A stretch of DNA of 50,103 nt from a virus. Numbering within the stretch: the stretch's first letter is position 1; every line of letters begins with the position of its first letter. The translations under genes were made by a program, and so were the position numbers. The notes below the pieces were generated by a model, which did not search any database, was not told the origin of the DNA, and saw only the letters and a program-made list of their open reading frames with translations. The DNA is taken from the UHGV virus genome UHGV-0211888; one strand, 5' to 3'. Positions 9,520-48,814 of the stretch are shown here, in pieces.

Positions 9520-9535
9520 CTTTTATATCCTTTCG

Positions 9536-10243: not shown

Positions 10244-10248
10244 CTTAA

Positions 10249-10497
10249 CTACTTAGTTTCAGTAGTTTCAGTTTTTGCGTCTACTACGACTGTCTTATCT
10301 GCTTTCTTACCTCTGAAGTGCTTGACAAGTTTGTAAACTCCGAATCCTAACAACCCGACACCAAGAGTGATACCTAATCCGGCACCAACCTTTTGTCCAG
10401 TTGTTAGTCCAGCTTTTGCAGCCTCACCGGCAACATCTCCAACAGTAGTCATAGCAGTATCAACTGCCTCAGTCTTAACAACATCATTCTGAACCAT
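10249..10497 (-). CDS. Small membrane protein (82 aa).
   Basis: TM GAGLGITLGVGLLGFGVYKLV. AAGGAGGAAATAAAA sits before the ATG. Confidence 0.45.
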   Translation of the reverse strand: MVQNDVVKTEAVDTAMTTVGDVAGEAAKAGLTTGQKVGAGLGITLGVGLLGFGVYKLVKHFRGKKADKTVVVDAKTETTETK

Positions 10498-10566
10498 TTT
10501 TATTTCCTCCTTATAGTTCTGGATGCTACTCCATTAGATGATATGTTTATTTTGCGAAATGTAAAA

Positions 10567-11319: not shown

Positions 11320-12176
11320 TTTGCTGCCTCCTTGGTCTTAATTTCTACAGGTTTGAAAGTAGATTTTTCCTTATCAAATGGCAAGAAATCTCCTCCGTCT
11401 TCTGAAGCATCCTGTATCGGTTCCTCGTCAAAGGATATAACCTTATATTCATGACCTTCAGCATCTTTTGTAGGAGTTAAATTCATGTGAATCCATTCAA
11501 CTCCAGTGGTGTCATCCAAATATTCTTTTGTCCAACCCCAGCAATAATCTGCTTTACTGATAGTCTTTTCATTTATAATATCTGCTTTAGCATCGCGTAA
11601 CATATCATATATTAAACAGAAATATGCAGTTTTATTATTCTGATCAACAGTATGGATACGTTGATTCATATCAGCATATGCTCTCATCAGATCTTCAGGT
11701 TTTGCTCTAAAGAAACCGATGCGTTCGATCCAATATAGATCAGTACCGCCGTCCAAGTCCGGATCGATTAAGTCAATACCAGATTGTTTTGCATCATCTT
11801 TAGATATACTTTGAAGAATGCTCTTGTGCGTATCAATACCGAGCATGTCTTTCACCTTATCAGAATACTTATAATATCCTTGCTGAAGCACTCCTGCACA
11901 GGCAAGTAGTGATACTTCTGCCTTTTTATTCAGAATAGCACTTCCGATGATAGAGGCGATAGTAATACCGCCAATCACGCCAGAGCGAATATAATAAGGA
12001 GCTTCAGCTTTCACCAACTCCATTTTTGTAGGATTCGGCTTGTTCTTGATGAGCTCTTCTCTTTTCTTCTCAGCTTTCTTACTGTCTTTGACTGCAAAAT
12101 ATGCAGTTGCTACTGTTCCAACAGAACTTAAAAGTGCCAAACCAACTGACACAATATTTTTCGTTTTAATATCCAT
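11316..12176 (-). CDS. Membrane protein, paralog family B (286 aa).
   Basis: TM LALLSSVGTVATAYFAV, then KKAEKKREE, then a second hydrophobic helix. Confidence 0.5.
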   Translation of the reverse strand: MDIKTKNIVSVGLALLSSVGTVATAYFAVKDSKKAEKKREELIKNKPNPTKMELVKAEAPYYIRSGVIGGITIASIIGSAILNKKAEVSLLACAGVLQQGYYKYSDKVKDMLGIDTHKSILQSISKDDAKQSGIDLIDPDLDGGTDLYWIERIGFFRAKPEDLMRAYADMNQRIHTVDQNNKTAYFCLIYDMLRDAKADIINEKTISKADYCWGWTKEYLDDTTGVEWIHMNLTPTKDAEGHEYKVISFDEEPIQDASEDGGDFLPFDKEKSTFKPVEIKTKEAAK

Positions 12177-12189
12177 CTTTTAATCCTTT

Positions 12190-12969
12190 CTAATTTAATG
12201 ATATTGCTTCTGGCATAATAATTTTATAGCCGGTCTTGACCTTTTCGATTTTTACGCCATTAAGATCTTTCCAACCATATTGTTCATACTTGGAATTACT
12301 ATAGTCAATTATCTTGGTACAATTAGTACTAGAAGCGGCGAGACTAAAGTAATATTTTACCGATAATTGACCTTTTCTACTAATTTCTTGCTTGGATATC
12401 TGAAGAATGTTATTAACCGTCTCCTTATTAGAAAATATAAAATCATATATTTTTAATATATCTCTCATGAAATTGAAGTGAATAGGTCTTGTAGAAAATT
12501 TAAGCATATATGGTCCATTAATATTTACATGACTTGAATGCAAGACTCTAATCTGAAAATGATCATTCCGAATCCAACCATATTCGTCATCTTCTTGCGA
12601 TGTCGTGCGCCCGCAAATATTATAACACTCACCGCAAGTTATAAACCCACTCTTCTTGATCGTATCTTTAATAATACCCTTAGCCGTATAGGCATCACTC
12701 CGATTCTTAAAAAACAGATGTCTGAAATGGTATTCGGGTTTATCAACCTCTTCGCAATCATCCTTCGGTTCTTCATGACGATAAGCTTCGCAAGTAATGA
12801 TAAGATGTCTCTCTTCGTCAGGATTACCTTTAGAGACCAAGTAGTACTTGAATGCAGTCGGATCTGCATCATTATCGACACGCTCCCCGACGACTTGATA
12901 CTTGAACGGCATCATTGATAACATCATCAAAGCTTCACCAACCTCAACATTTCGTTTTAACCAATTCAT
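12190..12969 (-). CDS. Hypothetical Cys-cluster protein, paralog family A (probable start at 12969; the track ORF extends to 12999).
   Basis: The ATG at 12967-12969 is preceded by AAAGGAGGAAATAAAACA. This 26-nt RBS/start block is identical to 14815-14840. CxxC-like pairs are ITCEAY...C and CGEC...C. Confidence 0.45.
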   Translation of the reverse strand: MNWLKRNVEVGEALMMLSMMPFKYQVVGERVDNDADPTAFKYYLVSKGNPDEERHLIITCEAYRHEEPKDDCEEVDKPEYHFRHLFFKNRSDAYTAKGIIKDTIKKSGFITCGECYNICGRTTSQEDDEYGWIRNDHFQIRVLHSSHVNINGPYMLKFSTRPIHFNFMRDILKIYDFIFSNKETVNNILQISKQEISRKGQLSVKYYFSLAASSTNCTKIIDYSNSKYEQYGWKDLNGVKIEKVKTGYKIIMPEAISLN

Positions 12970-13082
12970 TGTTTTATTTCCTCCTTTGATTAAAATCAAG
13001 AGAACTATATTTTTATAATTCTCATAATGTAAACTGTTTATTTTGCGAATTAACCAAATCTGACTCTAATAATAAATTCAGT

Positions 13083-33214: not shown

Positions 33215-35317
33215 TTATGGCATTACTTGTGCATCTGTTACATTAAATGTAACTTTAACAACAATATGCGAATCAGATGCTGATACTGCTGATATAATAA
33301 CAGTTCCGGCTTTTTTAAAACTTACGAGACATGAGGACGAAACATCTGCAGAAGATGAAAGATCCGCAATGGTAGGATCACTTGACGACCATCGTACGTC
33401 TTTATTAGTGGCATTATCCGGTTTAACCGTAGCTGTTAATTGAAGAGTATCTCCAGTATTGGCATTTACTGTTCCGGTTTTGTTTAAAGTAATACTTGTT
33501 GTAGGAACAATAACCAAAACACCTACGCTTTTACTTTCCTTGCATATAGTATCGTCATGAGGCCTGACAGAGACATTAGCATATCCGCCAGATTTAGCGG
33601 TGGCAAGTCCAGTATCACTAATAGTTATAATACTTTCCTGATCAGAAGACCAAACTAGTTCTTTATCGGTTGCATCATCTGGTTCTAGACTGGCTGTGAA
33701 TTGAAAAGTATCACCGAGAGTCATGCTACTATTATCTGGAGTATTACCTAATTTTATACCAGTTGGATGAACAACCGGCTCAGTAACTGTAACTTCACAA
33801 GTAGCAAATGTTAGACTATGAGCATAAGCATAACCTACAATGTTAACTTTTCCAGCAGATACGGCAGTGACGACTCCAGAACTATAACCAACTGTTGCGA
33901 CTGCAGGATTTTCTGTATGCCAGAAAACCTCCTGATACGCATCATCAGGTTTAACTGTAGCTGTTAATTTTTCAGTTGAACCTTTGGCAATTGATGTACT
34001 CGTCTTATTTATTGTGACAGTTGATGGCTTGGACAAAACATGAGCATGGGAAGTTGCTTTGGCATCAGGGTTATCGACAGAAGTTGCCGTAATTACAACA
34101 TCTCCAGCAGATTTGGGAGTTGACCATCCTAGTCGATCAATAATAGCCTTGCTCTCATCGGAAGATGACCATTTTATTTCTTTATTTGTTGCATTATCTG
34201 GCTCTACACGTGCCATAAATACTAGGTGACTAGTATCATTATAATCATATAATGTAATATTATCAGATGTAATCATCTTAACAGCAGTAACACGAACTGT
34301 ATAGTCAACTTTCTTTTCAAAAGTCACAGCAGAATAAGGAATAGTCAAGGCACCAGAGCAACGTGTCTCAATAAGATAAGATTGCTTGTTATAATCAATA
34401 TCAAAGTCGTCGAATAAAGACACCTGACCACCTTTATCAGCGCCAATAGTATAATCTGCAAGATTAACCATGATACCTAAGAGTTCATAAGAAAAGACAC
34501 CATCTTCATGCCCGATATTGTCAAACACAGGTACAGCGACAATCTTGCTTACTCTTAAAGCAGTAGCTAAAGCCTCTTGAGATTGATAAAGAGATATTCC
34601 GTACTCATCTTCAAGAAGCAGCATATTAGTCAACATATCTTCAGTAGTATAAAGAACTGGATTACCAGATCCTTTATAGTCCTTTCTAGACTTAACAACC
34701 TCTTTGATGAAATTCTTTGTAAAATCATCATCAGACTGGCTATCAGTCTTTTCAAGAACTTTATGAACAGCATAGACAGGATCATCGGTAAGAATAGGAC
34801 GAACATTATTTTCATTAATATGGTCATTGTCAGTTAGACTTCTACCATCTCCAATAAAAATAGCTCGAGCAATTTCTTCGTTCAACATTGTTCGCATTTC
34901 ATTCTTAATCCATGCGATCACGTCAAAGTCAGTGATATCGATAATATCATCTCTGTCCATCTTTTGCAATTTGTAAATTGTAGTTGGATCTGTAGAACGC
35001 TTTAATGCTGAAAAGACTTCCTCGACTTTTTGTTTACCTTTAACATAACCTTTGGCACGAGCTTCGTCTTCAGTAATGTTAGCATATCTTGTCTTGACTC
35101 TTGAAAATGGAACATGACGTACTCTTGAAAGAGCATCAGTTACCCATGAAGTATCTCTGCCTACAAGATTTGGTTCTTTATTAACATACTGAACCTCAGG
35201 AAAAAGATTTTCAACATCAGTAATACCATGTTCAAGAAATGCGTCTTTTAAGGAACCGCTTCTTTTGGCTTCGCTTACAATCTCGTTAAATTCACTGTGT
35301 GCAATAGCTTTTTCCAT
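33215..35317 (-). CDS. Capsid-domain paralog (~330 aa, about 65% identical to the C-terminal domain of 37358..39097) fused to four C-terminal Big_2-type Ig-like repeats, 700 aa.
   Basis: Shared blocks include FLEHGIT.VENLFPEVQ, YANIT.D.ARAKGY.KGKQKVEEV, MDRDD.IDITDFDV and ARAI.IGDGRS. The repeats are ...KPDDA/KPDNATNK..W.S.... as in Big_2 domains. Confidence 0.5.
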   Translation of the reverse strand: MEKAIAHSEFNEIVSEAKRSGSLKDAFLEHGITDVENLFPEVQYVNKEPNLVGRDTSWVTDALSRVRHVPFSRVKTRYANITEDEARAKGYVKGKQKVEEVFSALKRSTDPTTIYKLQKMDRDDIIDITDFDVIAWIKNEMRTMLNEEIARAIFIGDGRSLTDNDHINENNVRPILTDDPVYAVHKVLEKTDSQSDDDFTKNFIKEVVKSRKDYKGSGNPVLYTTEDMLTNMLLLEDEYGISLYQSQEALATALRVSKIVAVPVFDNIGHEDGVFSYELLGIMVNLADYTIGADKGGQVSLFDDFDIDYNKQSYLIETRCSGALTIPYSAVTFEKKVDYTVRVTAVKMITSDNITLYDYNDTSHLVFMARVEPDNATNKEIKWSSSDESKAIIDRLGWSTPKSAGDVVITATSVDNPDAKATSHAHVLSKPSTVTINKTSTSIAKGSTEKLTATVKPDDAYQEVFWHTENPAVATVGYSSGVVTAVSAGKVNIVGYAYAHSLTFATCEVTVTEPVVHPTGIKLGNTPDNSSMTLGDTFQFTASLEPDDATDKELVWSSDQESIITISDTGLATAKSGGYANVSVRPHDDTICKESKSVGVLVIVPTTSITLNKTGTVNANTGDTLQLTATVKPDNATNKDVRWSSSDPTIADLSSSADVSSSCLVSFKKAGTVIISAVSASDSHIVVKVTFNVTDAQVMP

Positions 35318-35330
35318 TTTGAATTATCTC

Positions 35331-35999
35331 TTAACCAGCAGCATTCATAATTGCAATAATGTCGTTAGGCATTAACAACTTGGAAGGAGCATCGGCGGTA
35401 CCATATAAAGCATCTTCGATTTTTTTTAACTTATCAGGTTTAATCTTTGTTGAATCGATTACAAGATGTGCAGTTGGCTTCATACCTTTAACTTCCACAG
35501 GTGTAGTCGAGACTTCCCATGAAAGTGTAATGGCAGAAGGTGAATCGTTAACAGTCTCATAACTTCTTTCGGAAGGTTGAGCTAAACAATTATAAATGAT
35601 GTGAAGCTTATAACCAGCATTGGCATCAATGTCATTCCCTACTCTAGTTCTATAACTAAATGCAAACTTCTTGCGTTCCTGTTGACTAACACTGACACCA
35701 GGAGCAAGTTCTACAGAGCCATCACATGGTCCAAATTCATCAGGACAGCTATAGGCTTCGATAGTTGCACCAAAGTTCTCAATAGAGAGAATATTAAGGT
35801 ATTTAATGTTATCAGCATAAATAGCTGTTGGCTCGGCCCCGTCAGGAGACTGAGTAACAGTTGTAAGACCATTCCAAGCAACACCAGAGGAATAACTAGT
35901 ACCTCCGGAATTGTCGACACTGGCAACAAACAGAACGCCATGGTCAACGCCTGTTTCATATCCATGCTCGCCAGCTTTATCCCAAATTAATTTAGCCAT
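35331..35999 (-). CDS. Major tail (tube)-like protein, copy 2 (222 aa).
   Basis: Paralog of 36017..36691 (MAKLIWDKAGEHGYETGVDHGVLF... versus MAQLKWDEVGKRGYETGVDHGVLY...). A 44-nt stretch, 35536-35579, is identical to 36219-36262. Confidence 0.45.
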   Translation of the reverse strand: MAKLIWDKAGEHGYETGVDHGVLFVASVDNSGGTSYSSGVAWNGLTTVTQSPDGAEPTAIYADNIKYLNILSIENFGATIEAYSCPDEFGPCDGSVELAPGVSVSQQERKKFAFSYRTRVGNDIDANAGYKLHIIYNCLAQPSERSYETVNDSPSAITLSWEVSTTPVEVKGMKPTAHLVIDSTKIKPDKLKKIEDALYGTADAPSKLLMPNDIIAIMNAAG

Positions 36000-36016: not shown

Positions 36017-36691
36017 CTATTTCAATTTCAAAATATTAACAATTTCATCAGGCATTAAGACTGTAGGTTCTTCAGTATCTGTTCCGTAGAGCTTATCCTC
36101 AATGAGTTTAAGCTTAGCAGCAGCACACTTGGTAGAATCGATCACCAAATGGGCGGTAGGTTTCATACCAGTAACATCAACTGGGGTTGTAGAAACTTCC
36201 CAAGAGAAGGTAATAGCCGAAGGTGAATCGTTAACAGTCTCATAACTTCTTTCGGAAGGTTGTGCCAAGCAGTTATAAATAATATGAAGTTTATAACCAG
36301 CTTCAGGATTAAGATCAGTACCGACTTTAGTACGATAGCAGAAGCAGAACTTCTTACGATCTTGTTGATCAATGGAAACACCAGAACCTTCACTACCGAG
36401 TTCCGCCGATCCGTCGCAAGCGGCAAAGGCATCAGGATATGTATAAGCTTCGATCGTAGCACCAAAGTTCTCAATAGAAAGAATATTCAAATACTTGATA
36501 TTATCTGCATAGATAGCAGTAGGTTCGGCACCATCTGGAGATTGGGTGACTGTAGTCAAACCATTCCAGGCAACGCCATGACCCCATGTGGTACCAGCAG
36601 CACCACTATTATTGGCGACATAAAGAACGCCGTGGTCGACACCGGTCTCATAACCGCGTTTTCCGACCTCGTCCCATTTTAATTGTGCCAT
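36017..36691 (-). CDS. Major tail (tube)-like protein, copy 1 (224 aa).
   Basis: Tandem paralog of 35331..35999. Confidence 0.45.
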   Translation of the reverse strand: MAQLKWDEVGKRGYETGVDHGVLYVANNSGAAGTTWGHGVAWNGLTTVTQSPDGAEPTAIYADNIKYLNILSIENFGATIEAYTYPDAFAACDGSAELGSEGSGVSIDQQDRKKFCFCYRTKVGTDLNPEAGYKLHIIYNCLAQPSERSYETVNDSPSAITFSWEVSTTPVDVTGMKPTAHLVIDSTKCAAAKLKLIEDKLYGTDTEEPTVLMPDEIVNILKLK

Positions 36692-37357: not shown

Positions 37358-39097
37358 TTAGCCAGCAAGTTTCTCTTCAAAAGAAATAGCAGAATAAGGA
37401 ACAACTAATGCTCCAGAGCAACGAGTTTCGATGAGATACTTTTGCTTGTTGAAATCAATATCAAAGTCATCAAACATAGAAACTTGACCACCCTTATCAG
37501 CACCAACATTATAGTCAGAAAGATTGACAAGAATACCAAGCAAGGCAAAGTTGTTAGCACCAACAGTTCTAGTATGACCTTCAAAGACAGGGACTGTAAC
37601 AATCTTAGAAACTCTTAAAGCAGTAGCAAGTTTGTCGACAGAGTCATAGATAACTCTTCCTGTCTTGTCTTCCATCAAGAGCATATTGGTGAGCATATCT
37701 TCAGATGTGTAAAGAACAGGATTTCCGGAACCTTTATATTCCTTACGAGACTTGATAACGTCATGAATAAATTTCTTAGCAAAGGTATCATCAGTATCTT
37801 CAGCAACTCTTTCAAGAGTTCTACTAACAGTATAGGTAGGATCATCACCAAGAATAGGACGAATATTAGAGGTATTGATATGATCATTATCAGAAGCAGA
37901 ACGTCCATCACCAATAAGGATAGCACGAGCCAATTCCTCATCAAGCATGACTCTCATTTCAGACTTTAACCAAGCAACGACATCGAAATCAGTAATATCA
38001 ATAACATCATCACGATCCATAGCTTGAAGCTTGTAAATAGTAGTAGGAGTGGTAGTTCTCTTCAAAGCAACGATAACTTCCTCGACTTTTTGCTTACCTT
38101 TAATGTAACCTTTGGCACGAGCAGCATCAGCAGTAATATTGGCATAAGTAGACTTAATTCTGGAGAAAGGAGTATGTTTGACACCACTCATAACTCCCTT
38201 GACCCAATCCATCTCACGAGAGACGAAGTAAGGTTCCTTATTGACAGCTTGAACTTCAGGGAACAAATTCTCGACATTAGTAATACCGTGCTCCAAGAAA
38301 GATTCCTTCATAGAACCATACTTCTTGGCATCGGAAACGATTTCCGAGAATTCGGCATGAGAAAGTTCTTCGGTTTTCTTCTCTTCTTTGTTTTGATTTT
38401 CAAATGCATTGTGTTTCATATCTTTATTATCCTCCTCGGCAGACTCAGCATCTCCATTCTTAGCATCTTCAATAGCCTGACCAACAATAGCAAACATCGC
38501 CTTTTTTTGCTTATCGGTCATTGTATTGATAACATCTTCAATAGTCTCTTCACTGTCGTCGGTTTCATCGGCAGCTTGAATCTTCTTTTCTTCTTCAGCC
38601 ATTTGTTTTTCCTCCTTTGTGTCATTATCGGCATGACTTAATTCAAGCCCTTCACTTGAATTCCAAATATAAGCCTCTTCCTCATTAGGTTCTGATTCGC
38701 CATGAGAGATGACATTCTCAATATAGGCACCAGGATTTGCACCTGCAAGAACGAGACTTACTTCTCGAATAGCACCATGAACGACATCATTGCCATTCTG
38801 TTTTAACTTATTGGCATAAATAGATAAAGCACAAATGTCACCATGCTGGACAAGTGCTTTAGCATTTCTGCCTTGAGGTGTATCATTAAAGGAACAATAT
38901 GCATAAACGCCACTGTCACGATCTTCTAGAAGAGCATGACCAAGGACATTGTCTGCATCCGTGTGATTGTGATTCCAGACAAGAGGAACCGTTGCACCAT
39001 TGTTTTCTTTAAAAGCACCCTTTAGGATTGTTCTACCATCGGAACAAGGAATTCCGAATCTAGTAGCCCATCCTGCAAAATCATATTTTTTGTCCAT
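37358..39097 (-). CDS. Prohead protease (HK97 U35/S78-like) - acidic scaffold-like linker - major capsid domain fusion, 579 aa.
   Basis: The N-terminal VPLVWNHNHTDADNVLGH ... ICALSIYAN...GAIREVSLVLAGANPGA matches the U35 hallmark E-V-S-L-V..PA. It is followed by an E/K-rich coiled region, then the ~330-aa domain shared with 33215..35317. Confidence 0.6.
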   Translation of the reverse strand: MDKKYDFAGWATRFGIPCSDGRTILKGAFKENNGATVPLVWNHNHTDADNVLGHALLEDRDSGVYAYCSFNDTPQGRNAKALVQHGDICALSIYANKLKQNGNDVVHGAIREVSLVLAGANPGAYIENVISHGESEPNEEEAYIWNSSEGLELSHADNDTKEEKQMAEEEKKIQAADETDDSEETIEDVINTMTDKQKKAMFAIVGQAIEDAKNGDAESAEEDNKDMKHNAFENQNKEEKKTEELSHAEFSEIVSDAKKYGSMKESFLEHGITNVENLFPEVQAVNKEPYFVSREMDWVKGVMSGVKHTPFSRIKSTYANITADAARAKGYIKGKQKVEEVIVALKRTTTPTTIYKLQAMDRDDVIDITDFDVVAWLKSEMRVMLDEELARAILIGDGRSASDNDHINTSNIRPILGDDPTYTVSRTLERVAEDTDDTFAKKFIHDVIKSRKEYKGSGNPVLYTSEDMLTNMLLMEDKTGRVIYDSVDKLATALRVSKIVTVPVFEGHTRTVGANNFALLGILVNLSDYNVGADKGGQVSMFDDFDIDFNKQKYLIETRCSGALVVPYSAISFEEKLAG

Positions 39098-39111: not shown

Positions 39112-40437
39112 TTAATTAAAATCTTGAATGTCAGGCAAATCAGAAATCTTAGTTGCAGCACTTACTCCTTGCTGGGAAGTATCTGCATCGTTGGTTCCAC
39201 TGTCCCCATTCTCTTCTGTTGTATTAGGAAAAGTTCCATTCTCAGGAGCATTAAGATTCTTATTACGCAATTCATCTGCTTTAGGATCGTTTATAGGCTT
39301 AAGACCAATAATCTGTCTGATCTCGTTTGAAGACATAATTTCATTTCTAGTGAATTTGTCTGCAATGTCAGCAAGATTACTAACCGGCATAAGTTTAAAT
39401 GGATCATTAAAGAACATAATATCTTGGCCTTGAGAACGTGCTGTCTGAGTCAAGAATTTCCTTTTCATTTCTTCAACAATAGCCGAAACAACAGGAGTAA
39501 CTGTTCGGTTCATATAATTTAGCATAGTCTTTTCGTCTGCTGTACCATCTAATACCGCCTGAGTGATTCCCAACTGGCTGTAAAGCATACTCGTCAGGTA
39601 TTCAATCTGGTTCATTAGATTATTATCAATAGAACGATTCAACTGTGTTATCTTTTCTGTACCGTCAGTATAGGCAATGCCGTACTTTGAATCAACCAAC
39701 TGATTCTCGATCTCTTTACGCCTACTCTCTGCTTGCTCCTTTCGTGTCTGAGTCTTTACCACATAAGGTAATTGAATAATCAAATTAAGTTTTCCAGAAC
39801 CGGATTGTTCATCAATTGCATCGAGAATATTTAGTTTCCTAATTAGACGTTGAAGTACTGAATTTCTTTCATTCATTATAGAATATAAAGGGTTCTCAAC
39901 GATTGCAACATCCTTCTTGGGCATTAAAATATTTTCACGATTACCAGTCCTATCATTATATACATTAACCTGTATATAATCAGGATACCAAGTGATTATT
40001 CGTCCGGTTCGCATTGTTTGTATATCGTAGGCACTAGTTTTATTAATATTTAGTGTTGTATCTATTGGTACAATAGCAATGCATCCCTCATCGAATAATG
40101 ATTCTACGATATCCTGAATAAATGCTTTCGATGCCTGATCCTTATTAGCTTCGATTGTAAGACAATGGTTAAGATCAGAGTTGATAGTCTCAGAATATCT
40201 TCCGTTGTCATCTAATTTTACATGCTTAATATCTACTCGGGAACAATCCACCGCAATTCTGTTATAAACAGCTGTGACAATAGATCTTTCGTTCCCTCTA
40301 GTAAAATATAAACGATCCGGACGATATGTGCTAGACAATCCTAAGTTGTAACTTGGGGCTGTATACAGTTCATCTTTGTCGTTTGCTGTAAATGCATTCC
40401 ATGCATGTTTTAGTCTATCAAAGAGACCCATATGCAC
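39112..40437 (-). CDS. Portal protein (441 aa).
   Basis: Immediately downstream of the large terminase. Its size and acidic C-terminal tail are typical of SPP1/HK97-type portals. Confidence 0.7.
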   Translation of the reverse strand: MHMGLFDRLKHAWNAFTANDKDELYTAPSYNLGLSSTYRPDRLYFTRGNERSIVTAVYNRIAVDCSRVDIKHVKLDDNGRYSETINSDLNHCLTIEANKDQASKAFIQDIVESLFDEGCIAIVPIDTTLNINKTSAYDIQTMRTGRIITWYPDYIQVNVYNDRTGNRENILMPKKDVAIVENPLYSIMNERNSVLQRLIRKLNILDAIDEQSGSGKLNLIIQLPYVVKTQTRKEQAESRRKEIENQLVDSKYGIAYTDGTEKITQLNRSIDNNLMNQIEYLTSMLYSQLGITQAVLDGTADEKTMLNYMNRTVTPVVSAIVEEMKRKFLTQTARSQGQDIMFFNDPFKLMPVSNLADIADKFTRNEIMSSNEIRQIIGLKPINDPKADELRNKNLNAPENGTFPNTTEENGDSGTNDADTSQQGVSAATKISDLPDIQDFN

Positions 40438-40458: not shown

Positions 40459-42204
40459 TCATTCGAATGCCTCCTTATTCTGCTTGTAAGCCACGAAGGC
40501 ATCCAACATGGCTGCTACATTATCAATTTTAGCATCGCGTCTTACTTTGTATAATTTTCTATTTCCATTGGTATCTTCCAAAGCTATACAATTACCCATA
40601 GCAAAAGTCATGAGTGATTGATCAAACTGTAAGAGCTTATTCTCGGCTAGCTTTTTAAGCTCTCCAAGAGGAACACTTTCAGTTTTGGATCCTTGTATAA
40701 CTTTAACGATACCATATGGTCCATTTTCTGTTTGCCATCTATCTACAAATTCTTTAGCGTTATAAGGATCGTATCCGAATGATCGAATGTCATACTTGCA
40801 ATCTGAAATATACTTATCCAGATCATCATAGACGTTCATCATATCAAGAATAGTTCCATCAAATACCATTAAAGATCCTTCAGTTATAAAATCTTCATAC
40901 TTTAAACGCATAGCCATAGGCAATTTATGCAAAGTATTTGATGTAATATAACTTCGAACCTTGATGCCAAACGAACCATCTGACAATGGGAACATAAATG
41001 TAAAAGCACAGAAATCATCACCTTGAGAAAGATCCGCTCCGAGTGCACAAGGCAAACCCCAGTAATCTCTTTTCCTTCCGGCTAGTGTTTCTTCATATGT
41101 AAAGTAATAAGTATAACCTTCCATAGGTATACCAAAACGCTTTGCCAAAATGTCATTCCTTGTCGCTGGAGCTTTTTCAGCTCTTTCTACATCTAGCTGA
41201 TAAGCTTCATAAGAAACAGTCTTTCCAATATTAGGATTAGCCTTAATCCACATTTCAGGATTACCAACTTCATTAATATTGTCAAGTTTATAATACCAGA
41301 TGGATACATGCGGGTTAACGTAATCACCTTTTAAGATGTCCATTAGCTCCATTTTGATTGTATCACCTGATCCGTTTCTTACAGTACCCTCAGAAGATAT
41401 GGCGACAATAAGATAATCATCAACTTTGGAAGCACCTTGTTCGATTGCTCCGACGACATCCTCTCGGACATCGCCAGAAAGCCATTCATCAATTGTAGCA
41501 ACCTTTACTCTTAAACCTTGAAGTTTGTCTATTCGCATTGGACGAATCTCTAGTAAGGAACCAGTCAGAAAGTTTTCGATACCTTTCTTTGTAGATGCAA
41601 GTTTTACCCTATTAGCTTTGGATCCAGTAGTATTCTGCAACGAACCTTCTGTCAAAAACTTAAACAGAGGACCTCTTGCTCTAGAAATGGATGTTCTAAT
41701 AGGAGACATAACTTCATCTGCTTGCTTCATGGTTGGAGCAGTACAAATCTGGTAAGTAGTTGTAGTATCAATATTAAGAAAATAACTTTGTATACAACTA
41801 CCATACATAGATTTTGCACCACCTCTTCCGAGAATAATATACTGCTTATTGACAAGACGCTTTTTAATATATCGCTTTTCGTAATGTCCTTTACCATTGT
41901 CACCATCTGGTATGAAGACGCTCCTTTCAAGAAAGTAATACCATCCAAATACTTCTTCAGCCCATAATTTAAATGAGTCAAGAAGTTTAAGATCAGAACC
42001 ATCGGTTAATGTCAATTCATTTTCACAATATTTTATGAAACCTTCAACTGCTTGGTCGTCATAATATACACCTGGATTGGCTATTAACTGATCAATCCGA
42101 TTCATCTCCATAGAGATTTCTTTACAGACTGGAAGTTGTCCATTTATGACCGCCTCTCTAAAACGGCCATAGTATTTAGGCACAGCCGTATTAGATAATG
42201 CCAT
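40459..42204 (-). CDS. Terminase large subunit (581 aa).
   Basis: Walker A-like ILGRGGAKS, a Walker B/coupling region VATIDEW, and a C-terminal RNaseH-like nuclease region with conserved acidic residues (YDPYNAKEF ... DNVAAMLDAF). Confidence 0.85.
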   Translation of the reverse strand: MALSNTAVPKYYGRFREAVINGQLPVCKEISMEMNRIDQLIANPGVYYDDQAVEGFIKYCENELTLTDGSDLKLLDSFKLWAEEVFGWYYFLERSVFIPDGDNGKGHYEKRYIKKRLVNKQYIILGRGGAKSMYGSCIQSYFLNIDTTTTYQICTAPTMKQADEVMSPIRTSISRARGPLFKFLTEGSLQNTTGSKANRVKLASTKKGIENFLTGSLLEIRPMRIDKLQGLRVKVATIDEWLSGDVREDVVGAIEQGASKVDDYLIVAISSEGTVRNGSGDTIKMELMDILKGDYVNPHVSIWYYKLDNINEVGNPEMWIKANPNIGKTVSYEAYQLDVERAEKAPATRNDILAKRFGIPMEGYTYYFTYEETLAGRKRDYWGLPCALGADLSQGDDFCAFTFMFPLSDGSFGIKVRSYITSNTLHKLPMAMRLKYEDFITEGSLMVFDGTILDMMNVYDDLDKYISDCKYDIRSFGYDPYNAKEFVDRWQTENGPYGIVKVIQGSKTESVPLGELKKLAENKLLQFDQSLMTFAMGNCIALEDTNGNRKLYKVRRDAKIDNVAAMLDAFVAYKQNKEAFE

Positions 42205-42212
42205 TTTGAATT

Positions 42213-43475
42213 TTACCTACGTTTCTTTTCAGTAGAGACGGGGAGTTTTCCTGTCTTCTTATAATAGTCAAATGCTTTCTGATTCGAAACTTCATTCATC
42301 TGTTGATTAACAACATAGTCGTTTTCTTTTTGTTTATTTTTAGTGAGTTTTTTAGCGACAGCACCTCCAATAAATCCTAAACTAGATGCTAGACCGATAG
42401 CTTTAGCCCAATTTATTCCACGTTTAAATTCATTGGTGTTAACTATTTTCCCAGTCTTTTTGTTCAACTTATTTTTGAATTTAAAGGAGTAGTCTGTAAA
42501 CCACTTATGGCCGGTCATCACTCCATGAGAACTAATTTTGGTCCCGGATAAATTTTTACCAATACGAAAACTGGAGTGATCTCCTTTGGGGCCAACAATG
42601 TTAGCAGCTCTGCTTTTTCCATACTTTTTGTCAAGAATAAGATTCACTGCATGAGCTCCTGCAACAACAGCGGCAGCAGCACCGATACCAATAGCAGTAC
42701 CGGTAGCAATTTTTCTAGCCTTATCATGCTGCTTATCTTTTTTGTATAAAGATCTTCCTTGCGGAGACATATTGCCTTGACGGTCGACTCCATAACGAAT
42801 CAAACCCTCATCAGTAAGAGAGCCATCGGGGTTCTGATAACGACGAATGCCCCACTTTTGACCTTTAACTCCATAGTGGTATAGTTCGTCAGAAAACTCA
42901 TCAGAATGTTTAGCAGAATCTTTATCTTTCTTGTCATTCTTACTTTTATCGATCTGACTTTGAACCTGAACATTCGGAATATTAACTGCATTAAATAGAT
43001 TAGGTAAAGTACCAGCACCGACCACTAATGACGCAATAGCTGCATTGGCCGCCATCTCACCAGCACGTACTTTTTTACCTTTTACCTTATTATATAATGC
43101 TGAAATTCCATAAGTTGCAGCAAAGGTTGCACCTGTAGAAATTAGGGAGGATAAGGCCGCCTTTTTAATAGCTGATCTCTTTTGTTGACTTCTTTTCTCC
43201 GGTGTAGAAACATCTTGGAGTCGCTTGTAGTTGTATTCGGCGTTAAGTCGATTAGACGACCTAATAAGGTCATCAGTTGACATCTTCTCAGGATCCTTAT
43301 AAGTTCCACTGTCATTGTACCTCGCTTTGCCTGCTTCAGTTAAAGTTCCGTCTTTGTTCTGATAATTACGAACTCCCCACTTTTGACCTTTAGTGCCATA
43401 GTGGTAAAGTTCATCATCTGAATTGGAAAGAAATTTATCTAAATAATTCTTTCCGATAGTAGTTTCATTTTTCAT
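42213..43475 (-). CDS. Hypothetical protein with two copies of a YHYG(T/V)KGQKWG(V/I)R.YQN.DG(T/S)LT(E/D) motif module, each followed by an Ala/Gly-rich hydrophobic segment (420 aa).
   Basis: ELYHYGTKGQKWGVRNYQNKDGTLTEAG and ELYHYGVKGQKWGIRRYQNPDGSLTDEG. Hydrophobic segments ALSSLISTGATFAATYGISALY and ATGTAIGIGAAAAVVAGAHAV. Confidence 0.45.
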   Translation of the reverse strand: MKNETTIGKNYLDKFLSNSDDELYHYGTKGQKWGVRNYQNKDGTLTEAGKARYNDSGTYKDPEKMSTDDLIRSSNRLNAEYNYKRLQDVSTPEKRSQQKRSAIKKAALSSLISTGATFAATYGISALYNKVKGKKVRAGEMAANAAIASLVVGAGTLPNLFNAVNIPNVQVQSQIDKSKNDKKDKDSAKHSDEFSDELYHYGVKGQKWGIRRYQNPDGSLTDEGLIRYGVDRQGNMSPQGRSLYKKDKQHDKARKIATGTAIGIGAAAAVVAGAHAVNLILDKKYGKSRAANIVGPKGDHSSFRIGKNLSGTKISSHGVMTGHKWFTDYSFKFKNKLNKKTGKIVNTNEFKRGINWAKAIGLASSLGFIGGAVAKKLTKNKQKENDYVVNQQMNEVSNQKAFDYYKKTGKLPVSTEKKRR

Positions 43476-43493
43476 TTTGAATTTTACCTCCTA

Positions 43494-43955
43494 TTATTTA
43501 GGTCTTTTAAAAGTCGCTGTGAATCCTTTGCCAAGAAGCTTAGCAACAGAATTAGACCCTGTTTGAAGAAGAGCAGCATTAACATCCTTTACACGAATAG
43601 TTTCAAATGCTTTTCTTGTTTCTGCTGCTTTCTTACCAGCAAGAACACGTTTGCCATGCTCTTTTCTTTTTGTAAGATACCAAGCCAATCCAGCTGCCGA
43701 TGCAGCAGTTGCTGCCAATCCAACGCCGATCGCAGTATTTCGTTTAAGTTTGTCTGATCGGGTAGTCATGTCTTTATCAAAATTTGCTCGTTGAGAAGGA
43801 GACATTTCTTGATAAGAATTGGCACCGTATCTTGCACGTCCTTCTTCCGTCAAGGTGCCATCTGCGTTTTGGTATCTTCTGATACCCCATTTCATTCCTT
43901 TAACTCCAGAATGATACAATTTACTATCCATTGGTTTATCCTCCTTTCTCTGCAA
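43494..43955 (-). CDS. Hypothetical protein with one copy of the same motif module (153 aa).
   Basis: SKLYHSGVKGMKWGIRRYQNADGTLTEEG ... AIGVGLAATAASAAGLAWYL. Confidence 0.45.
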   Translation of the reverse strand: MQRKEDKPMDSKLYHSGVKGMKWGIRRYQNADGTLTEEGRARYGANSYQEMSPSQRANFDKDMTTRSDKLKRNTAIGVGLAATAASAAGLAWYLTKRKEHGKRVLAGKKAAETRKAFETIRVKDVNAALLQTGSNSVAKLLGKGFTATFKRPK

Positions 43956-44343: not shown

Positions 44344-44802
44344 TTAACCTCCTTTTATCCATGGTGCCGTATCATTCGGCATACGTTCAGTGAATTTCTT
44401 TTTATCCAAATATCGTTCATCACCAAAATGAATAGCATCATGAGTTTCCTTAGAAACACAGATCAAATATTCGGGATTGAGCAAAAAATCAGAGGATTTG
44501 TCTATATCGTCAATAGTAATAGGATTCATGTGATGGACATATATCCTTCCTCCGATCTCTCGATCTTGAATTCCTAAATCGCAGCCATTATCTCTTACAA
44601 TAACAAAGTCTCTGATATGTTTCCATTCAACTGATCTGTAAAATTGCTGATTCAAATATCTGTCGAATCCGAATGTAGAATCTCCAACATTAGAAAAGCA
44701 CTCTAAATATCTAAAACGTTCTTCAAATGTAGGAAGTTGAATTAATTCTGTATAAGTTTTAATAACTTTTCTATTGGCCATTAGAATTTTCACCTCCATC
44801 AT
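44344..44802 (-). CDS. HNH endonuclease (packaging-associated).
   Basis: CDLG...YVHHMNPI...THDAIHF is an H-N-H pattern. It lies upstream of the terminase, as in cos-type phages. Confidence 0.75.
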   Translation of the reverse strand: MMEVKILMANRKVIKTYTELIQLPTFEERFRYLECFSNVGDSTFGFDRYLNQQFYRSVEWKHIRDFVIVRDNGCDLGIQDREIGGRIYVHHMNPITIDDIDKSSDFLLNPEYLICVSKETHDAIHFGDERYLDKKKFTERMPNDTAPWIKGG

Positions 44803-45130
44803 TTGGATCGTAACCAGAATATGAGCGCATAGCCTTCAAGGCATCTTCATAAAGCTCCTCAGTATGCTTAGCTGATTTAATTGCATCAATCTTTGCCTGA
44901 GTAAGTTCATTTTCTTTTGCAAGTTGCTCTCGTTCGAGCTGTTCTTTCACCGTAGCTAGCTTTAAAAAATGAGTTGTCTCTTGAGAAGAGGCAGTTCCGT
45001 TCTTTAATCGCTGTTCTACTAAGTCCATCGCCAATGAAATCATTTGGTTCTCTCTTGCTTCTGGAGTTAGAGCCGGTCTTGTTGGCTGAGTAACCTCAGA
45101 ACCAGAGATCACGGTTCTCTTTTTATACAT
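44771..45130 (-). CDS. Hypothetical protein (119 aa), possible terminase small subunit by position.
   Basis: First gene after the structured intergenic region, with an HTH-like N-terminal region. Weak call. Confidence 0.25.
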   Translation of the reverse strand: MYKKRTVISGSEVTQPTRPALTPEARENQMISLAMDLVEQRLKNGTASSQETTHFLKLATVKEQLEREQLAKENELTQAKIDAIKSAKHTEELYEDALKAMRSYSGYDPNDGGENSNGQ

Positions 45131-45454
45131 TTCTGTTCTCCTTTAAAGTAGATTAAATATAATTTTTATATAGTTTTGGTTAACTATTTGGAGGAGCGTA
45201 CTAACTTTTTCCATAGTTTCTTGACCCGATACCTAAGGAGAAAGCAGGAGGAAGATAAAACAATAAATCTTTCATGAACTAGTAGTACGCCCCTCCAAAC
45301 AGCTAACCCTCCGAGCAAAAACATTTATAAAAAATATCCCGCCGGAGAATTTTTTCAGAGCCACGCGATTCGAGGGGGTGCACATATTGCTATACCCTCC
45401 CCCGGGTCTGAAAAATGCTGTTTGAGGTCTATTTTATTGATATTTTAGGCCATT
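45131..45454. promoter_or_regulatory. GC-rich structured intergenic region. A 17-bp inverted repeat (45187-45203 / 45283-45299, one mismatch) has a 79-nt loop. A second imperfect stem is TTTTTCAGA...TCTGAAAAA (45350-45415), with an internal GGGGG/CCCCC pair.
   Basis: tttggaggagcgtacta pairs with tagtacgcccctccaaa. Local GC is far above the rest of the genome. The region sits between the early block and the packaging block. Confidence 0.55.
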
Positions 45455-45718: not shown

Positions 45719-48700
45719 TTACTCCTTTCCTGATAAGTATTTAGTAACAGTAGAAGGCGACACATTCAATGTATCGGCTATTTCTGCTGTTGTCAGACCA
45801 CTATTAGCCATAGCTTTCATACGTGAAATCTTAGATGGGCTGAGAACAGTAGTAGTTCTAGGTAAGGCTAACTGTTTAAGCCTTTGATCATCTACATATT
45901 TCATGATATTTTTAAGACGGGCAGTTGATATTGCACCGGCTTGTATGGCAGCCCATTCATTATCTGTAATTGATATTGGGTGTCTTTTTGCACCTACTTT
46001 TCTTCTTGCTATCATAAGCTCCTTTTGGGAAAGCTTTTGATATTCTTCGTTTGTCATATTAGGATCTGCTTGCCTCTTGGCTTTAAGATTAGTCTGAGCT
46101 ATTACTTGAGCCTGACGCTCTCTAGGGGCATTTAACTCTGACTGATTAAGCTTGTATTTTAATTGTTGCACCTCTGTTGCATATTTTTGGGCAGCATCTC
46201 TAGAATAGGGAATGTCTTCTACAGCCATACTCTCTTTTCTAGATTTAAGAGCCAAAGCTTTCAAATAATTTGCATAATCGGCGTATAATTCCTCTTGAGG
46301 AGTGCCAGAACTTAATGCATGGGCATCTTTCACGGCATTCATCTTAGGAATATTCATCATAGCTTTCTTAGAAATAATCTTCTTAGGATCTGTGATCTGA
46401 ACATACTCTTTTGTCTCAGGATCTTTGTAATAGTATTTACCATCTTGAGCAAAAGCAGATACAGTTTTGGTCTTATTAGTACCATTTACCTTAATCTGTG
46501 TCTGGTAATATGTCCTGTTTGTGTCATGATACAATAACTCTCCGGTTTTAGGATCAGTATATCTTGTACCAACACCCTTCTTACCTTTAAACATCTCACC
46601 AGTAGATCTGTCAATATATGTTTCATTCTTCTCATCAACTACGTCAAGCTTCTTACCATTATCTTTACGATAGAATTCACCTGGTTTTCTTTCAGGAATA
46701 GCATAATCTGCACTTGCTTGAGAAATAAGTGTCGAAGCACCGCCAAGTTTTTCAGTTCCTGATAAAGGATCGTAATGAGATTGATATTTGGCTTTTAATT
46801 GAGAAATATTGTTGTCAATATATGACTGCTTATAGTCGTACTTGTGCTTTACTGCATCAATAACAACCATTGAATGTCTAACCGCACGAGCAATTTCATC
46901 ATCAGTTGCACCTCTGAGTGTCATATCAGTAATAAGATTCGAAATCTGTCCCATTTCCTTTTGTTTGGAACCTTCGGACATGATTTTATACTCTTTACCA
47001 TTACGATATGCATGCTCAGTTCCATCTTTATCAAATTTAATTTCAGATGGACCATATGAATCGCCAGGATCAAAATTTTCGAGACCTTTAAGAGCCTTAG
47101 AAGAATTGACTCTAGTATTATCACTTAATGGAATGCAAATAACAGTATCACCATCGAAGTCCGCACCAGACATTTTGGCTGCGGCTTTAGCAGTAATACC
47201 AATAGCATCGCTAGGGGTTTTACCAAGATGCTCTTGAGCTTCTTTGTTGTCATTGTTCACAGTTAAGACAGGAATCTCAAAAGTACCACCATGAGGGAAA
47301 CGAATAAGAGCAACTTGTCTACCATTAGGTAAATCTGGATTGTAACATTCATCATCCTTTAACGATGGAACAGGAAGAATAACCTTATACTTTTGACCAG
47401 AAAATGCAGCAGCCTTTAAACTAACAGAAGCGGCATCACAATCATCGGCATAAGATTCAAGCAAATGACGTTTAATAGTAGGATTAGTCAATGACATAAT
47501 CTCATCATATTCATCTTGTTTGTCTTTCTCAGATTGGAGTATTTGCTTCTTAATAGTAGATTTTGGTTGTTTAGATAGAAATTGAGAAGGAAGTTCATGC
47601 GACCAATCTCCCCAATCACCTTCATCAGATCTTTTGTTAATTGCTGACAAGGATTGTTTATTGCCTGTCATCGGATCAGTATATTTACCATTAGGATCAT
47701 CGTAATATGATTGACCACCGACTTCCTTGATTGCAGAACCGAAAGGATTGTCAGGATCTTTCTTAATAGCTTTAAGAACACCGCCATCGGAAGTAGGCTT
47801 TCCATTAGCATCAAATGCCTCCAAAGGAGTTCCGGTCTTCTTACTAGTATTAAATCTGATGTCAACACCTTTAGGAAGGTCATCTGAATAAACAGCCATA
47901 CCTTTAAGGTAATGAGTTCCATCGACCATAATACGAACCTGAGAATATGCAGATCCACCAAGACTTAAATCTTTAACTCCTGGACGAATCTCAATAAGAC
48001 CATCTCTTTCAGCACCGCCTTGATCACTATATCTGACAGCAACTCGCTTAGAAGATATAGAAGTCGGATACCTGAAAGAAGGTTCAAGTGTTTGCCCACC
48101 ATCTCTAGTGGTGAAGTCTTCAACGCCATGAATATCCTCCAATTTATAAGCATCAGAATATGGAACTCCAGGAGGACAAAGTACTTTAACAGTTGTAAAA
48201 TTTCCTTTATTAGTAGCTTGTTCTACTCTAATTGAATATACATTGTAGCCTTTTTCTTTGAGAATCTCAATAGCAGAATTAAGTTTCTCTCTTGAAACTC
48301 CTAAATATTTCTCAGATTGGGTTCCAACATCGATCATACCTTTTTCTTTTACAATAGTTTCGAGATTATCGGCAACTTTCTGAGTTTTACTAAGACGATT
48401 CTGTCTTTCAGAGTTTAATGCACTCCTGACGGAAGATTCGTTAATACCCAACTTTCTACCGATTTCTGTAGGAGTAAGACCATCTTTCTGCAAAGATTTA
48501 ATATCTGCTAGAATGAGTTTTCTTCTTTCTTCAGTTGCGATAGAACGCTTTGCTCTAAATTGAGTTGTACTCATTCCAAGAGCATTAGCAATCTCAACTT
48601 CGGACATTCCTTTAGACTTCATTTCATCAATACGGCTAAGAAAGTCACCGGTTCTTTGATAAGGATCATCACCAGAACCCCAAGGATAACGTCCTGAATG

Positions 48701-48814
48701 TCTTGGAGTACCATAATGTTTTACATCTTCATCTGATTCTTTATCCTCACCAAGAAAAATATCTGGAGAGGGTTTTTCTAAATTGATTTTTCCGTTTCGT
48801 TTTTGCTCGTTCAT
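45719..48814 (-). CDS. Two-barrel (DPBB) polymerase homologous to the multisubunit RNAP beta-prime/beta catalytic core (YonO-like single-subunit RNAP) fused to sigma-region-4-like HTH domains, 1031 aa.
   Basis: aa 503-556 LIRFPHGGTFEIPVL...AKAAAKMSGADFDGDTVICIPL (nt ~47147-47314). Compare beta-prime NRAPTLHRLGIQAFEPVL...AAYNADFDGDQMAVHVPL. aa 740-752 EMFKGKKGVGTRY (nt ~46571-46585); compare beta RHGNKGVVSRI. HTHs: MSEVEIANALGMSTTQFR, LTPTEIGRKLGINESSVRSAL, LTTAEIADTLNVSPSTVTKYL. Confidence 0.55.
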   Translation of the reverse strand: MNEQKRNGKINLEKPSPDIFLGEDKESDEDVKHYGTPRHSGRYPWGSGDDPYQRTGDFLSRIDEMKSKGMSEVEIANALGMSTTQFRAKRSIATEERRKLILADIKSLQKDGLTPTEIGRKLGINESSVRSALNSERQNRLSKTQKVADNLETIVKEKGMIDVGTQSEKYLGVSREKLNSAIEILKEKGYNVYSIRVEQATNKGNFTTVKVLCPPGVPYSDAYKLEDIHGVEDFTTRDGGQTLEPSFRYPTSISSKRVAVRYSDQGGAERDGLIEIRPGVKDLSLGGSAYSQVRIMVDGTHYLKGMAVYSDDLPKGVDIRFNTSKKTGTPLEAFDANGKPTSDGGVLKAIKKDPDNPFGSAIKEVGGQSYYDDPNGKYTDPMTGNKQSLSAINKRSDEGDWGDWSHELPSQFLSKQPKSTIKKQILQSEKDKQDEYDEIMSLTNPTIKRHLLESYADDCDAASVSLKAAAFSGQKYKVILPVPSLKDDECYNPDLPNGRQVALIRFPHGGTFEIPVLTVNNDNKEAQEHLGKTPSDAIGITAKAAAKMSGADFDGDTVICIPLSDNTRVNSSKALKGLENFDPGDSYGPSEIKFDKDGTEHAYRNGKEYKIMSEGSKQKEMGQISNLITDMTLRGATDDEIARAVRHSMVVIDAVKHKYDYKQSYIDNNISQLKAKYQSHYDPLSGTEKLGGASTLISQASADYAIPERKPGEFYRKDNGKKLDVVDEKNETYIDRSTGEMFKGKKGVGTRYTDPKTGELLYHDTNRTYYQTQIKVNGTNKTKTVSAFAQDGKYYYKDPETKEYVQITDPKKIISKKAMMNIPKMNAVKDAHALSSGTPQEELYADYANYLKALALKSRKESMAVEDIPYSRDAAQKYATEVQQLKYKLNQSELNAPRERQAQVIAQTNLKAKRQADPNMTNEEYQKLSQKELMIARRKVGAKRHPISITDNEWAAIQAGAISTARLKNIMKYVDDQRLKQLALPRTTTVLSPSKISRMKAMANSGLTTAEIADTLNVSPSTVTKYLSGKE

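Follow-up and report, generated by a model that had tools for sequence, protein, structure and literature searches.

The stretch of viral DNA considered here, UHGV virus genome UHGV-0211888 (50,103 nucleotides, analysed at full length and called the window below), is essentially the whole ~50-kb genome of an uncultured gut phage of the Caudoviricetes. Immediately upstream of the gene for the large terminase (TerL) it contains two adjacent genes, named gene A and gene B here, whose products carry between them three copies of one short peptide, the tag. This raises the question why a phage should place the same peptide repeatedly at such a site. Our study demonstrates that the tag is a portable, N-proximal element that is almost wholly restricted to two gene slots of one phage lineage. 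As to its role, we give an even chance to the reading that it is a capsid-targeting and processing signal analogous to the capsid targeting sequence (CTS) of phage T4, in which case the window proteins would be packaged, membrane-active ejection proteins.

The two open reading frames (ORFs) and the three motif copies reported in a preliminary description of the window, which was made from its letters alone, are confirmed: the ORFs span 42213-43475 (420 amino acids, aa) and 43494-43955 (153 aa), both on the minus strand, and gene callers start gene B at ATG 43931, which gives a product of 145 aa, the ORF itself reaching TTG 43955. In the 420-aa protein the tag occupies aa 21-56 and aa 196-231, in the 153-aa ORF aa 11-46, and a six-frame regular-expression scan of the window found no further canonical copy. 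Both proteins exceed the gathering score (27 bits) of the Pfam family PF23847 (DUF7211), the larger with two stretches (E 3.6e-16, 58.7 bits) and the smaller with E 2.3e-7 and 30.5 bits; our own hidden Markov model (HMM) of the tag scores 67-84 bits per copy. Over ~35 aa the copies share 66-71% amino acid identity and 59-68% nucleotide identity, with different codons at 10-18 of 23-25 conserved residues. This heavy synonymous divergence indicates old duplicates under purifying selection rather than a recent DNA repeat, and a low-complexity artefact, a concern raised at the outset, is ruled out by the invariant residues H, G, W, R, Q, N and D. The core of the tag reads (D/E)-x-L-x-H-x-G-[VIT]-K-G-[MQ]-K-W-G-[VI]-R-R; Firmicutes phages add YQNxDG[TS]LTxxG, and actinophages have a shortened form, FLAHYGVKGMKWGV[RK]K.

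The Pfam entry has the same 25-residue core as the three copies in the window, but it describes a family of unknown function only and does not mention position, portability, gene context, a polymerase variant or junction sites. The family is thus already catalogued; the functional proposal, the link to a polymerase and the histidine-site motif described below are new as far as searched, and we found no literature for DUF7211 or the peptide KGMKWG. A search of PDB with the tag profile gave no match, nor did NCBIfam for the product of gene A or gene B. AlphaFold2 returned mostly low-confidence helices, with pLDDT 48 for the 145-aa protein (70-sequence alignment) and 46 for the 420-aa protein (34 sequences). 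Such models are as expected if the tag region is a short linear motif and not a folded domain, and they would fit a peptide that folds on a partner; the "domain of unknown function" of the preliminary description is better replaced by a linear tag.

To see the tag in other genomes, IMG/VR and one genome per GTDB species were scanned with the tag profile, and the fetched loci were analysed by our own ORF/HMM/phmmer pipeline. The resulting sample comprises 153 related loci with 417 tagged ORFs, namely 79 viral loci (213 ORFs) from IMG/VR and 74 genome loci (204 ORFs). A viral locus contains one to seven tagged ORFs, and in 204 of the 213 the tag lies within 40 residues of the N-terminus, behind a short (median 10 aa) and acidic leader. 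Once the tag is masked, these 213 ORFs fall apart into 107 unrelated cargo clusters. As to location, 114 lie between TerL and the portal gene and 59 between the connector-like gene and TerL, together 173, while none of the 213 is on the opposite strand and none lies beyond the portal. TerL of the same lineage is present in 75 of the 79 viral loci and in 45 of the 48 genome loci of at least 12 kb; the hosts of the genome loci are mostly Clostridia, including prophages of complete Faecalibacterium genomes and Clostridium leptum DSM 753. With a profile built from the three tags of the window alone, 29,615 representatives of 50%-identity clusters are matched at E ≤ 1e-3, among them proteins with as many as five tags and as long as 1,569 residues. 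A type VII secretion signal of WXG/LXG type was also considered, because the Firmicutes and Actinobacteria host range matches, and was rejected: the motif has W-G instead of W-x-G, a helical hairpin is absent, and the context is strictly that of phage head genes.

The lineage in question is a supercluster comprising Lactococcus phage 1706, Faecalibacterium phage FP_oengus and phages of Gordonia, Arthrobacter, Streptomyces, Rhodococcus and Microbacterium. The window belongs to it by its TerL, HNH endonuclease, connector, portal, protease–capsid fusion and polymerase-like protein; a DNA-level search of phage genomes gave only distant terminase and HNH matches. The supercluster and its polymerase-like helix-turn-helix (HTH) protein were described by Koert et al. 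(bioRxiv 10.1101/842583), where the motif was not noted.

Homologues of gene B have nothing in common with gene B except the motif, and they follow a plan of short leader, motif and charged linker, often a helix with MSDxEL..R.N.E..Y, often a hydrophobic segment, and a Lys-rich tail. In actinophages tags head whole runs of adjacent genes (Pepy6 gp015-gp020, Gill gp14-16, TaidaOne gp9-11). Gene A is a fusion of two modules. Module 1 (~aa 1-190) consists of a tag, the motif MSTDDL..RLNAEYNY and hydrophobic segments; module 2 (~aa 191-420) consists of a tag, a transmembrane (TM)-like segment and a C-terminal part with a third hydrophobic segment, and close relatives have it as a gene of its own (237 aa; clusters with 122 and 314 members). 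Among the best 120 relatives of gene A, 58 have two tags and 54 have three, each typically followed by a hydrophobic segment. The modular, duplicated nature of the unit, as first suggested from the window alone, is therefore borne out.

A second conserved motif, M[ST]xx[DE]L...R[LM]N[LM]E..Y, is not captured by Pfam. It marks the core tagged family immediately upstream of TerL in Firmicutes and Actinobacteria phages alike, and is also found in Gill gp12, Pepy6 gp013, TaidaOne gp7, Camille gp9, FP_oengus AUV56562 and 1706 ORF7. The position immediately upstream of TerL is kept in the window, 1706, Gill, Pepy6, TaidaOne and Camille, no small terminase (TerS) is annotated in these phages, and size and predicted helicity would fit, so that gene A, or the core family with tag and MSxxEL motif, might be taken for TerS, as the preliminary description had allowed. 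We consider this extremely improbable. The profile searches lead to PF23847 and, in Pfam, PHROGs and NCBIfam, to no TerS family for either protein; the same tag sits on enzymes and on up to seven paralogues; and 1706 ORF7 is labelled structural, whereas TerS is not a virion protein. A better positional candidate is a 119-aa protein (44771-45130, minus strand; phrog_4259), which is homologous to 1706 gp04, overlaps the HNH gene and is kept beside that gene in 60 of the 79 related loci. It has no family match, and the PDB search returned noise only; by position it is the best candidate for the small terminase.

The content of the cargo is more informative about function. Recognisable domains include a papain-fold glutamine-deamidase toxin (PF15644, E 1.7e-9), GNAT acetyltransferases, a 2H phosphoesterase (Gill gp12 and Pepy6 gp013), a P-loop kinase-like domain, CW_7 repeats, a sigma-70 r3/r4 HTH and membrane-like modules. 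Toxin, GNAT, phosphoesterase, kinase-like and sigma HTH cargo makes sense only inside the host cell, which supports delivery.

Two of these cargo types deserve a separate remark. In actinophages, Gill gp12 (Gordonia phage; L002:3228-4793) and ReqiPepy6 gp013 (L003:5981-7576) are encoded directly upstream of TerL and begin with a 2H phosphoesterase-like domain (two H-x-T motifs; weak PF13563 match), which is followed by an internal tag, a Gly/Ser linker and an MSNxEL motif; judged by its sequence, the protein might be injected and modify nucleotides or RNA. Among the globular cargo, the best conserved is a domain of ~250 aa (...GYDALIDDNDAGIW...) that comes after the tag in Pepy6 gp017 (L003:10571-11404), Gill gp15 (L002:6977-7819) and a further ORF (L028:1920-2978). 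It has no Pfam match, reaches 60-79% identity between phages of Gordonia, Arthrobacter and Rhodococcus, and is present in gut phages too.

The cargo of the window itself would be of the membrane-like kind. The hydrophobic Ala/Gly-rich segments noticed in the preliminary description are real, but they start 25-85 aa past the tag end and not after ~60-100 aa, and only aa 253-282 of gene A attain classical TM hydropathy (Kyte-Doolittle 19-mer maximum 1.82; other segments 1.29-1.46). Likewise, the pairing of tag and hydrophobic segment is common but not obligatory, given that a strongly hydrophobic 19-mer is present in only 72 of the 213 tagged viral ORFs. It is conceivable that the tagged proteins remain in the membrane of the infected cell, as holin/antiholin-like proteins, superinfection exclusion proteins or anchors for head assembly or packaging, and that the tag serves for interactions in the cytoplasm, with TerL or the portal for instance. 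Their Lys/Arg-flanked hydrophobic segments and basic C-terminal tails resemble tail-anchored and holin-like proteins, the lysis cassette of actinophages lies in the same region, and one annotator named a neighbouring tagged protein "membrane protein". We nevertheless regard this explanation as unlikely, because much of the cargo consists of soluble enzymes and the strongly hydrophobic ORFs are the minority just mentioned. Moreover, most hydrophobic segments of the window stay under the usual TM threshold, separate holins are annotated in 1706, Gill and Pepy6, and two tagged relatives, 1706 ORF7 and Pepy6 gp019, are labelled structural; the protease-type junction sites described below would also be left without explanation. 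TM-like segments and a basic tail are seen in the window proteins, and no endolysin gene is adjacent in the window.

The presence of CW_7 peptidoglycan-binding repeats in some tagged proteins (P0178, P0238) leads to a different possibility: the tag could be a small beta-hairpin of the cell-wall-binding-repeat kind, on exposed virion proteins that bind the Gram-positive envelope. The pattern W-G-x3-Y-x-N-x-D-G-x-L-T-x-x-G, formed with the Firmicutes extension YQNxDGTLTxxG, bears what we take to be a resemblance to choline- and wall-binding hairpin repeats. Actinophage tags, however, are entirely without the extension, each module has one tag and not an array, and there are no Pfam or PDB matches to cell-wall-binding families. 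The genes lie among head genes and not tail genes, and the cargo acts inside cells, so that we judge wall binding to be very improbable.

Returning to capsid targeting, the annotation of relatives points to the virion. In the GenBank record EU081845, deposited by the authors of phage 1706, functions based on similarity are written "putative ...", and 11 ORFs are written "(major) structural protein", including the connector-like ORF6, ORF7 and ORF75. ORF7 (462 aa) is encoded directly upstream of TerL and contains two tags (E 5e-6 and 7e-8 with our own HMM) as well as MSTRSLQNRVKRLQAEQQF; in both place and architecture it corresponds to gene A. ReqiPepy6 gp019, with a tag, a Gly/Ser linker, a TM-like segment and a basic tail, is annotated structural as well. 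We take the label "structural" to mean detection in purified virions, as the wording of a database record suggests; literature searches found no virion proteomics of this lineage that could be read.

A possible mark of processing is found in front of the internal tags. The junction between the two modules of gene A reads DSAKH↓SDEFSDELYHYG (the arrow marks the putative cut), and K/N/G-H-S-D recurs upstream of internal tags. Of 144 non-redundant internal tags, 86 (60%) have the pattern [LIVMA]-x-H-[SAGN] in the 30 residues before them, compared with 0% of 527 control windows from the same proteins and 2% of 145 natural N-terminal leaders. The median distance from the site His to the tag His is 11 residues, so that cleavage after His would leave a 10-residue leader, which is the median of natural leaders.

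The same kind of site is abundant in the fusion of an S78-type prohead protease with the major capsid protein, whose linker (aa 115-290 of the fusion protein in the window) contains repeated [LIVM]-x-H-[SGAN]. In 92 non-redundant fusions the linker has 5.65 copies of [LIVM]-x-H, where shuffles give an expectation of 1.32 (4.3-fold), with L/M/V/I at P3 in 85% and S/G/A/N at P1' in 83%; in 39 of 40 fusions, the conserved LFP anchor of the capsid domain has one such site ~41 residues ahead of it. The strict pattern is found only seven times in the 16,211 residues of the window ORFs: four times in the fusion and once each at residue 5 of a capsid paralogue, at the gene A junction and in the DNA polymerase. 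That paralogue, a second major capsid protein of 700 aa (33215-35317, minus strand), matches the capsid part of the fusion at 68% identity over 333 aa, has neither protease nor linker, and carries C-terminal Ig-like domains. It starts with MEKAIAH↓SEF, exactly at the position of ELSH↓AEF in the fusion. A specificity of this protease for His at P1 is thus a candidate property, and the His sites would be its maturation sites, with the multi-tag proteins among its substrates; such substrates would require a location inside the procapsid.

Protease sites common to the tagged proteins and to the scaffold-like linker of the fusion, in a lineage without a separate scaffold gene, are also what one would see if the tagged proteins were core- or scaffold-like assembly factors, which the protease degrades in the procapsid and which are expelled before or during DNA packaging. 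The helical or disordered and charged nature of the proteins would suit such factors. A toxin, GNAT, phosphoesterase, kinase-like or polymerase cargo would be pointless, however, if it were degraded, and scaffold function agrees poorly with one to seven copies and a hypervariable payload of 107 clusters. Since the labels of 1706 ORF7 and ORF75 imply persistence in mature virions, we hold this explanation to be distinctly unlikely.

The ORF75 just mentioned links the tag to a polymerase. The preliminary description had noted a weak resemblance between the motif and the N-terminus of the RNA-polymerase-like protein of the window, and the comparison of profiles strengthens it: hhalign aligns this N-terminus with the DUF7211 tag at 91.6% probability (E 8.4e-7, 17 columns, with a 4-residue insertion). 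Seven diverse homologues start with (D/E)xLxHYG[TI]xR[KH]SGR[YF]PWGSG, and this variant is kept, within residues 7-51, in nearly all complete homologues among 55 examined in the fetched loci. 1706 ORF75 (1029 aa) is 38% identical over its full length to the window protein and has the same tag and the ADFDGD string. Its label as a structural protein suggests that these siphophages of Gram-positive bacteria have an RNA polymerase in the virion. The canonical DUF7211 form was not seen on polymerase homologues among 126 representative matches, in which a single protein has a DxDGD string and is not a polymerase. Because the hhalign match is strong and the plain HMM not significant, kinship between the two tags is likely, not certain.

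According to the capsid-targeting reading, then, the tag would be an addressing peptide that directs unrelated proteins into the procapsid of one HK97-type siphophage lineage. Inside the procapsid the capsid-fused protease would cut multi-module cargo at x-H↓[SA]-D/E, ~10 residues upstream of internal tags, and the cargo would be ejected later together with the DNA. The RNA-polymerase-like protein with its diverged tag would be a virion enzyme. The payload of genes A and B, marginally hydrophobic Ala/Gly-rich helices, may insert into the host membrane on ejection and help DNA entry or anchoring, as has been proposed for ejection proteins and tape-measure segments; such membrane insertion is the weakest step. 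We infer both encapsidation by the tag and cleavage at the His sites, and candidate receptors for the tag are the portal, the neighbouring connector-like protein and, within the capsid fusion, the acidic linker or the protease cleft. The evidence favours the early hunch that these genes encode head-internal or ejection proteins, and none of the four rival explanations accounts at once for enzymes as cargo, a tag on the polymerase, structural labels and sites at the junctions.

Several observations nevertheless weigh against this proposal. Virion status rests on database labels rather than experiment, and as the small non-tagged 1706 proteins ORF62 and ORF71 are labelled structural too, contamination is possible. 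The receptor of the tag is still at candidate level. In the tag itself L-x-H precedes an aromatic residue, unlike the putative cleavage sites with their small residue. The plain tag HMM gives no significant score on the polymerase N-terminus, of which it recognises only the "eLxHyG" half. The sequences behind the statistics are related, so that the counts are not independent events. Finally, proteins with TM-like segments usually enter the membrane of the producer cell instead of being packaged.

In T4, the CTS is found on the internal proteins IPI-III and Alt. The tag is like the CTS in being a short N-terminal peptide on unrelated proteins, in the hypervariable cargo genes and host-modifying enzymes associated with it, and in having beside it a prohead-protease site with a hydrophobic P3 (L/I-x-E↓ in T4, here the putative L/M/V/I-x-H↓). 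It differs in having no sequence similarity to the CTS consensus and no PDB or Pfam link to it, in its greater length (20-35 aa) and in its richness in Gly, Trp and basic residues; it is an analogue and not a member. Furthermore, in the present siphophage the protease and the capsid protein are fused and a separate scaffold core is lacking, tags are also found internally, at the start of each polyprotein module, and encapsidation and cleavage would here be conclusions from sequence.

A second parallel is provided by the MuF/SPP1 gp7 proteins, whose genes likewise lie near portal and terminase and are fused to papain-fold toxins or GNAT domains, and which are predicted to be injected (PMC5512222, which also gives background on T4 CTS-type internal proteins and MuF-linked polyvalent proteins). 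MuF, however, is a portal-binding folded domain that is hundreds of residues long, whereas the tag is a linear motif, and no MuF or Phage_Mu_F match was found in any tagged protein scanned. With the virion RNA polymerases (N4 vRNAP, crAss-like gp66, YonO-type) the tagged polymerase-like protein shares the DxDGD two-barrel signature (as ADFDGD), and its 1706 orthologue is labelled a structural protein. It differs in belonging to a Gram-positive siphophage and in its HTH domains at both ends, and its activity and packaging are predictions; the proposal of a targeting element on such an enzyme is new. For encapsulin cargo-loading peptides the similarity is by analogy only: a short Gly-containing peptide addresses diverse cargo to the inside of an HK97-fold shell. 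Those peptides are usually C-terminal and bind a defined shell pocket, whereas the tag is mostly N-proximal and known from sequence alone.

A wider formulation can be offered tentatively, as somewhat more doubtful than an even chance: a peptide of 20-35 aa together with His-P1 sites would form a lineage-wide cargo-addressing system that loads more than 100 unrelated protein families into HK97-type capsids in phages of Actinobacteria and Firmicutes. With the same reserve, a two-barrel RNA polymerase might be among its cargo, beside toxin-like enzymes and membrane-active modules, and polyproteins might be cut to single-tag units in the head. How proteins are selected for packaging and injection outside T4, P22, T7 and N4 is largely unknown, especially in Gram-positive siphophages, which dominate the human gut virome and actinophage collections. 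If the proposal is true, the injected proteome of thousands of uncultured gut phages (candidate anti-defence enzymes, toxins, virion RNA polymerase) becomes predictable from sequence, the hypervariable gene cassette beside the terminase is explained, and the tag provides a ready means of packaging foreign cargo in phages that infect gut Clostridia and actinobacteria. The hypothesis is open to direct testing, since cultivable members are numerous (Gordonia, Arthrobacter and Streptomyces phages, Lactococcus 1706, FP_oengus).

The coordinates of the features are collected in Table 1. All window genes are on the minus strand, in the order polymerase-like protein, 86-aa ORF, 324-bp gap, 119-aa ORF, HNH, connector-like protein, gene B, gene A, TerL, portal and protease–capsid fusion, with 18 nucleotides between gene B and gene A and 8 between gene A and TerL. 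The placement of the two genes between HNH and terminase in the preliminary description was right on the TerL side, but the upstream neighbour is the connector-like gene, HNH lying one gene further.

Table 1. Positions of the tagged genes, their parts and the neighbouring genes in the window.
Feature	Position	Strand	Evidence or remarks
RNA-polymerase-like protein, 1031 aa	45719-48814	-	ADFDGD; HTH domains at both ends
Related N-terminal tag of polymerase-like protein (DVKHYGTPRHSGRYPWGSG)	48665-48730	-	hhalign 91.6%
HNH endonuclease	44344-44802	-	One gene upstream of connector-like gene
Connector-like protein PF24829	43936-44304	-	Conserved upstream neighbour of tagged genes; 1706 orthologue ORF6
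Gene B	43494-43931	-	Tag, charged linker, Ala/Gly-rich hydrophobic segment, basic tail
Tag copy 3, gene B (SKLYHSGVKGMKWGIRRYQNADGTLTEEGRARYGA)	43818-43925	-	PF23847 E 2.3e-7; 83.9 bits with own HMM
Ala/Gly-rich hydrophobic segment, gene B (NTAIGVGLAATAASAAGLAWYL)	43674-43739	-	Kyte-Doolittle 19-mer maximum 1.46
Gene A, 420 aa, two modules	42213-43475	-	ORF list, Pfam, hydropathy, alignments
Tag copy 1, gene A (DELYHYGTKGQKWGVRNYQNKDGTLTEAGKARYND)	43308-43415	-	Pfam and own HMM
Second conserved motif M[ST]xx[DE]L...R[LM]N[LM]E..Y, gene A	43212-43283	-	Aligned in 30 members of cluster 0
Two marginally hydrophobic Ala/Gly/Ser-rich segments, module 1	42981-43166	-	Hydropathy
Inter-module junction SAKH↓SDEF, putative prohead-protease site, 10 residues upstream of tag 2	42900-42917	-	[LIVMA]-x-H-[SAGN] match
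Tag copy 2, gene A (DELYHYGVKGQKWGIRRYQNPDGSLTDEGLIRYGV)	42783-42890	-	Pfam and own HMM
TM-like segment, module 2 (ARKIATGTAIGIGAAAAVVAGAHAVNLILD)	42630-42719	-	Kyte-Doolittle maximum 1.82
Third hydrophobic segment, gene A (AIGLASSLGFIGGAVAKKL)	42345-42410	-	Hydropathy
TerL (large terminase)	40459-42204	-	Conserved downstream neighbour; 8-nt gap to gene A
Portal	39112-40437	-	ORF list and family scans
Prohead protease (S78)–major capsid fusion	37358-39097	-	Acidic linker with LELSH↓ADND, DMKH↓NAF, EELSH↓AEF

Some further features of the genome may be mentioned. The 324-bp intergenic gap (45131-45454), between the 86-aa ORF that follows the polymerase and the 119-aa ORF, contains a G+C-rich sequence, GACCCGGGGGAGGG...GCACCCCCTCG (~45355-45410), at the place of the 9-10-nt 3' cos ends in 1706-like genomes; the contig is therefore probably a circular permutation of the physical genome. 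Paralogues are found in two other parts of the window, all on the minus strand. Two tandem major tail protein genes (35331-35999 and 36017-36691) both match phrog_2645 at E ~1e-99, and the replication region contains an array (8521-12999) of three phrog_2152 proteins (8521-9519, 10567-11319, 11316-12176) and two phrog_4079 proteins (9536-10243, 12190-12999), both of them families without assigned function.

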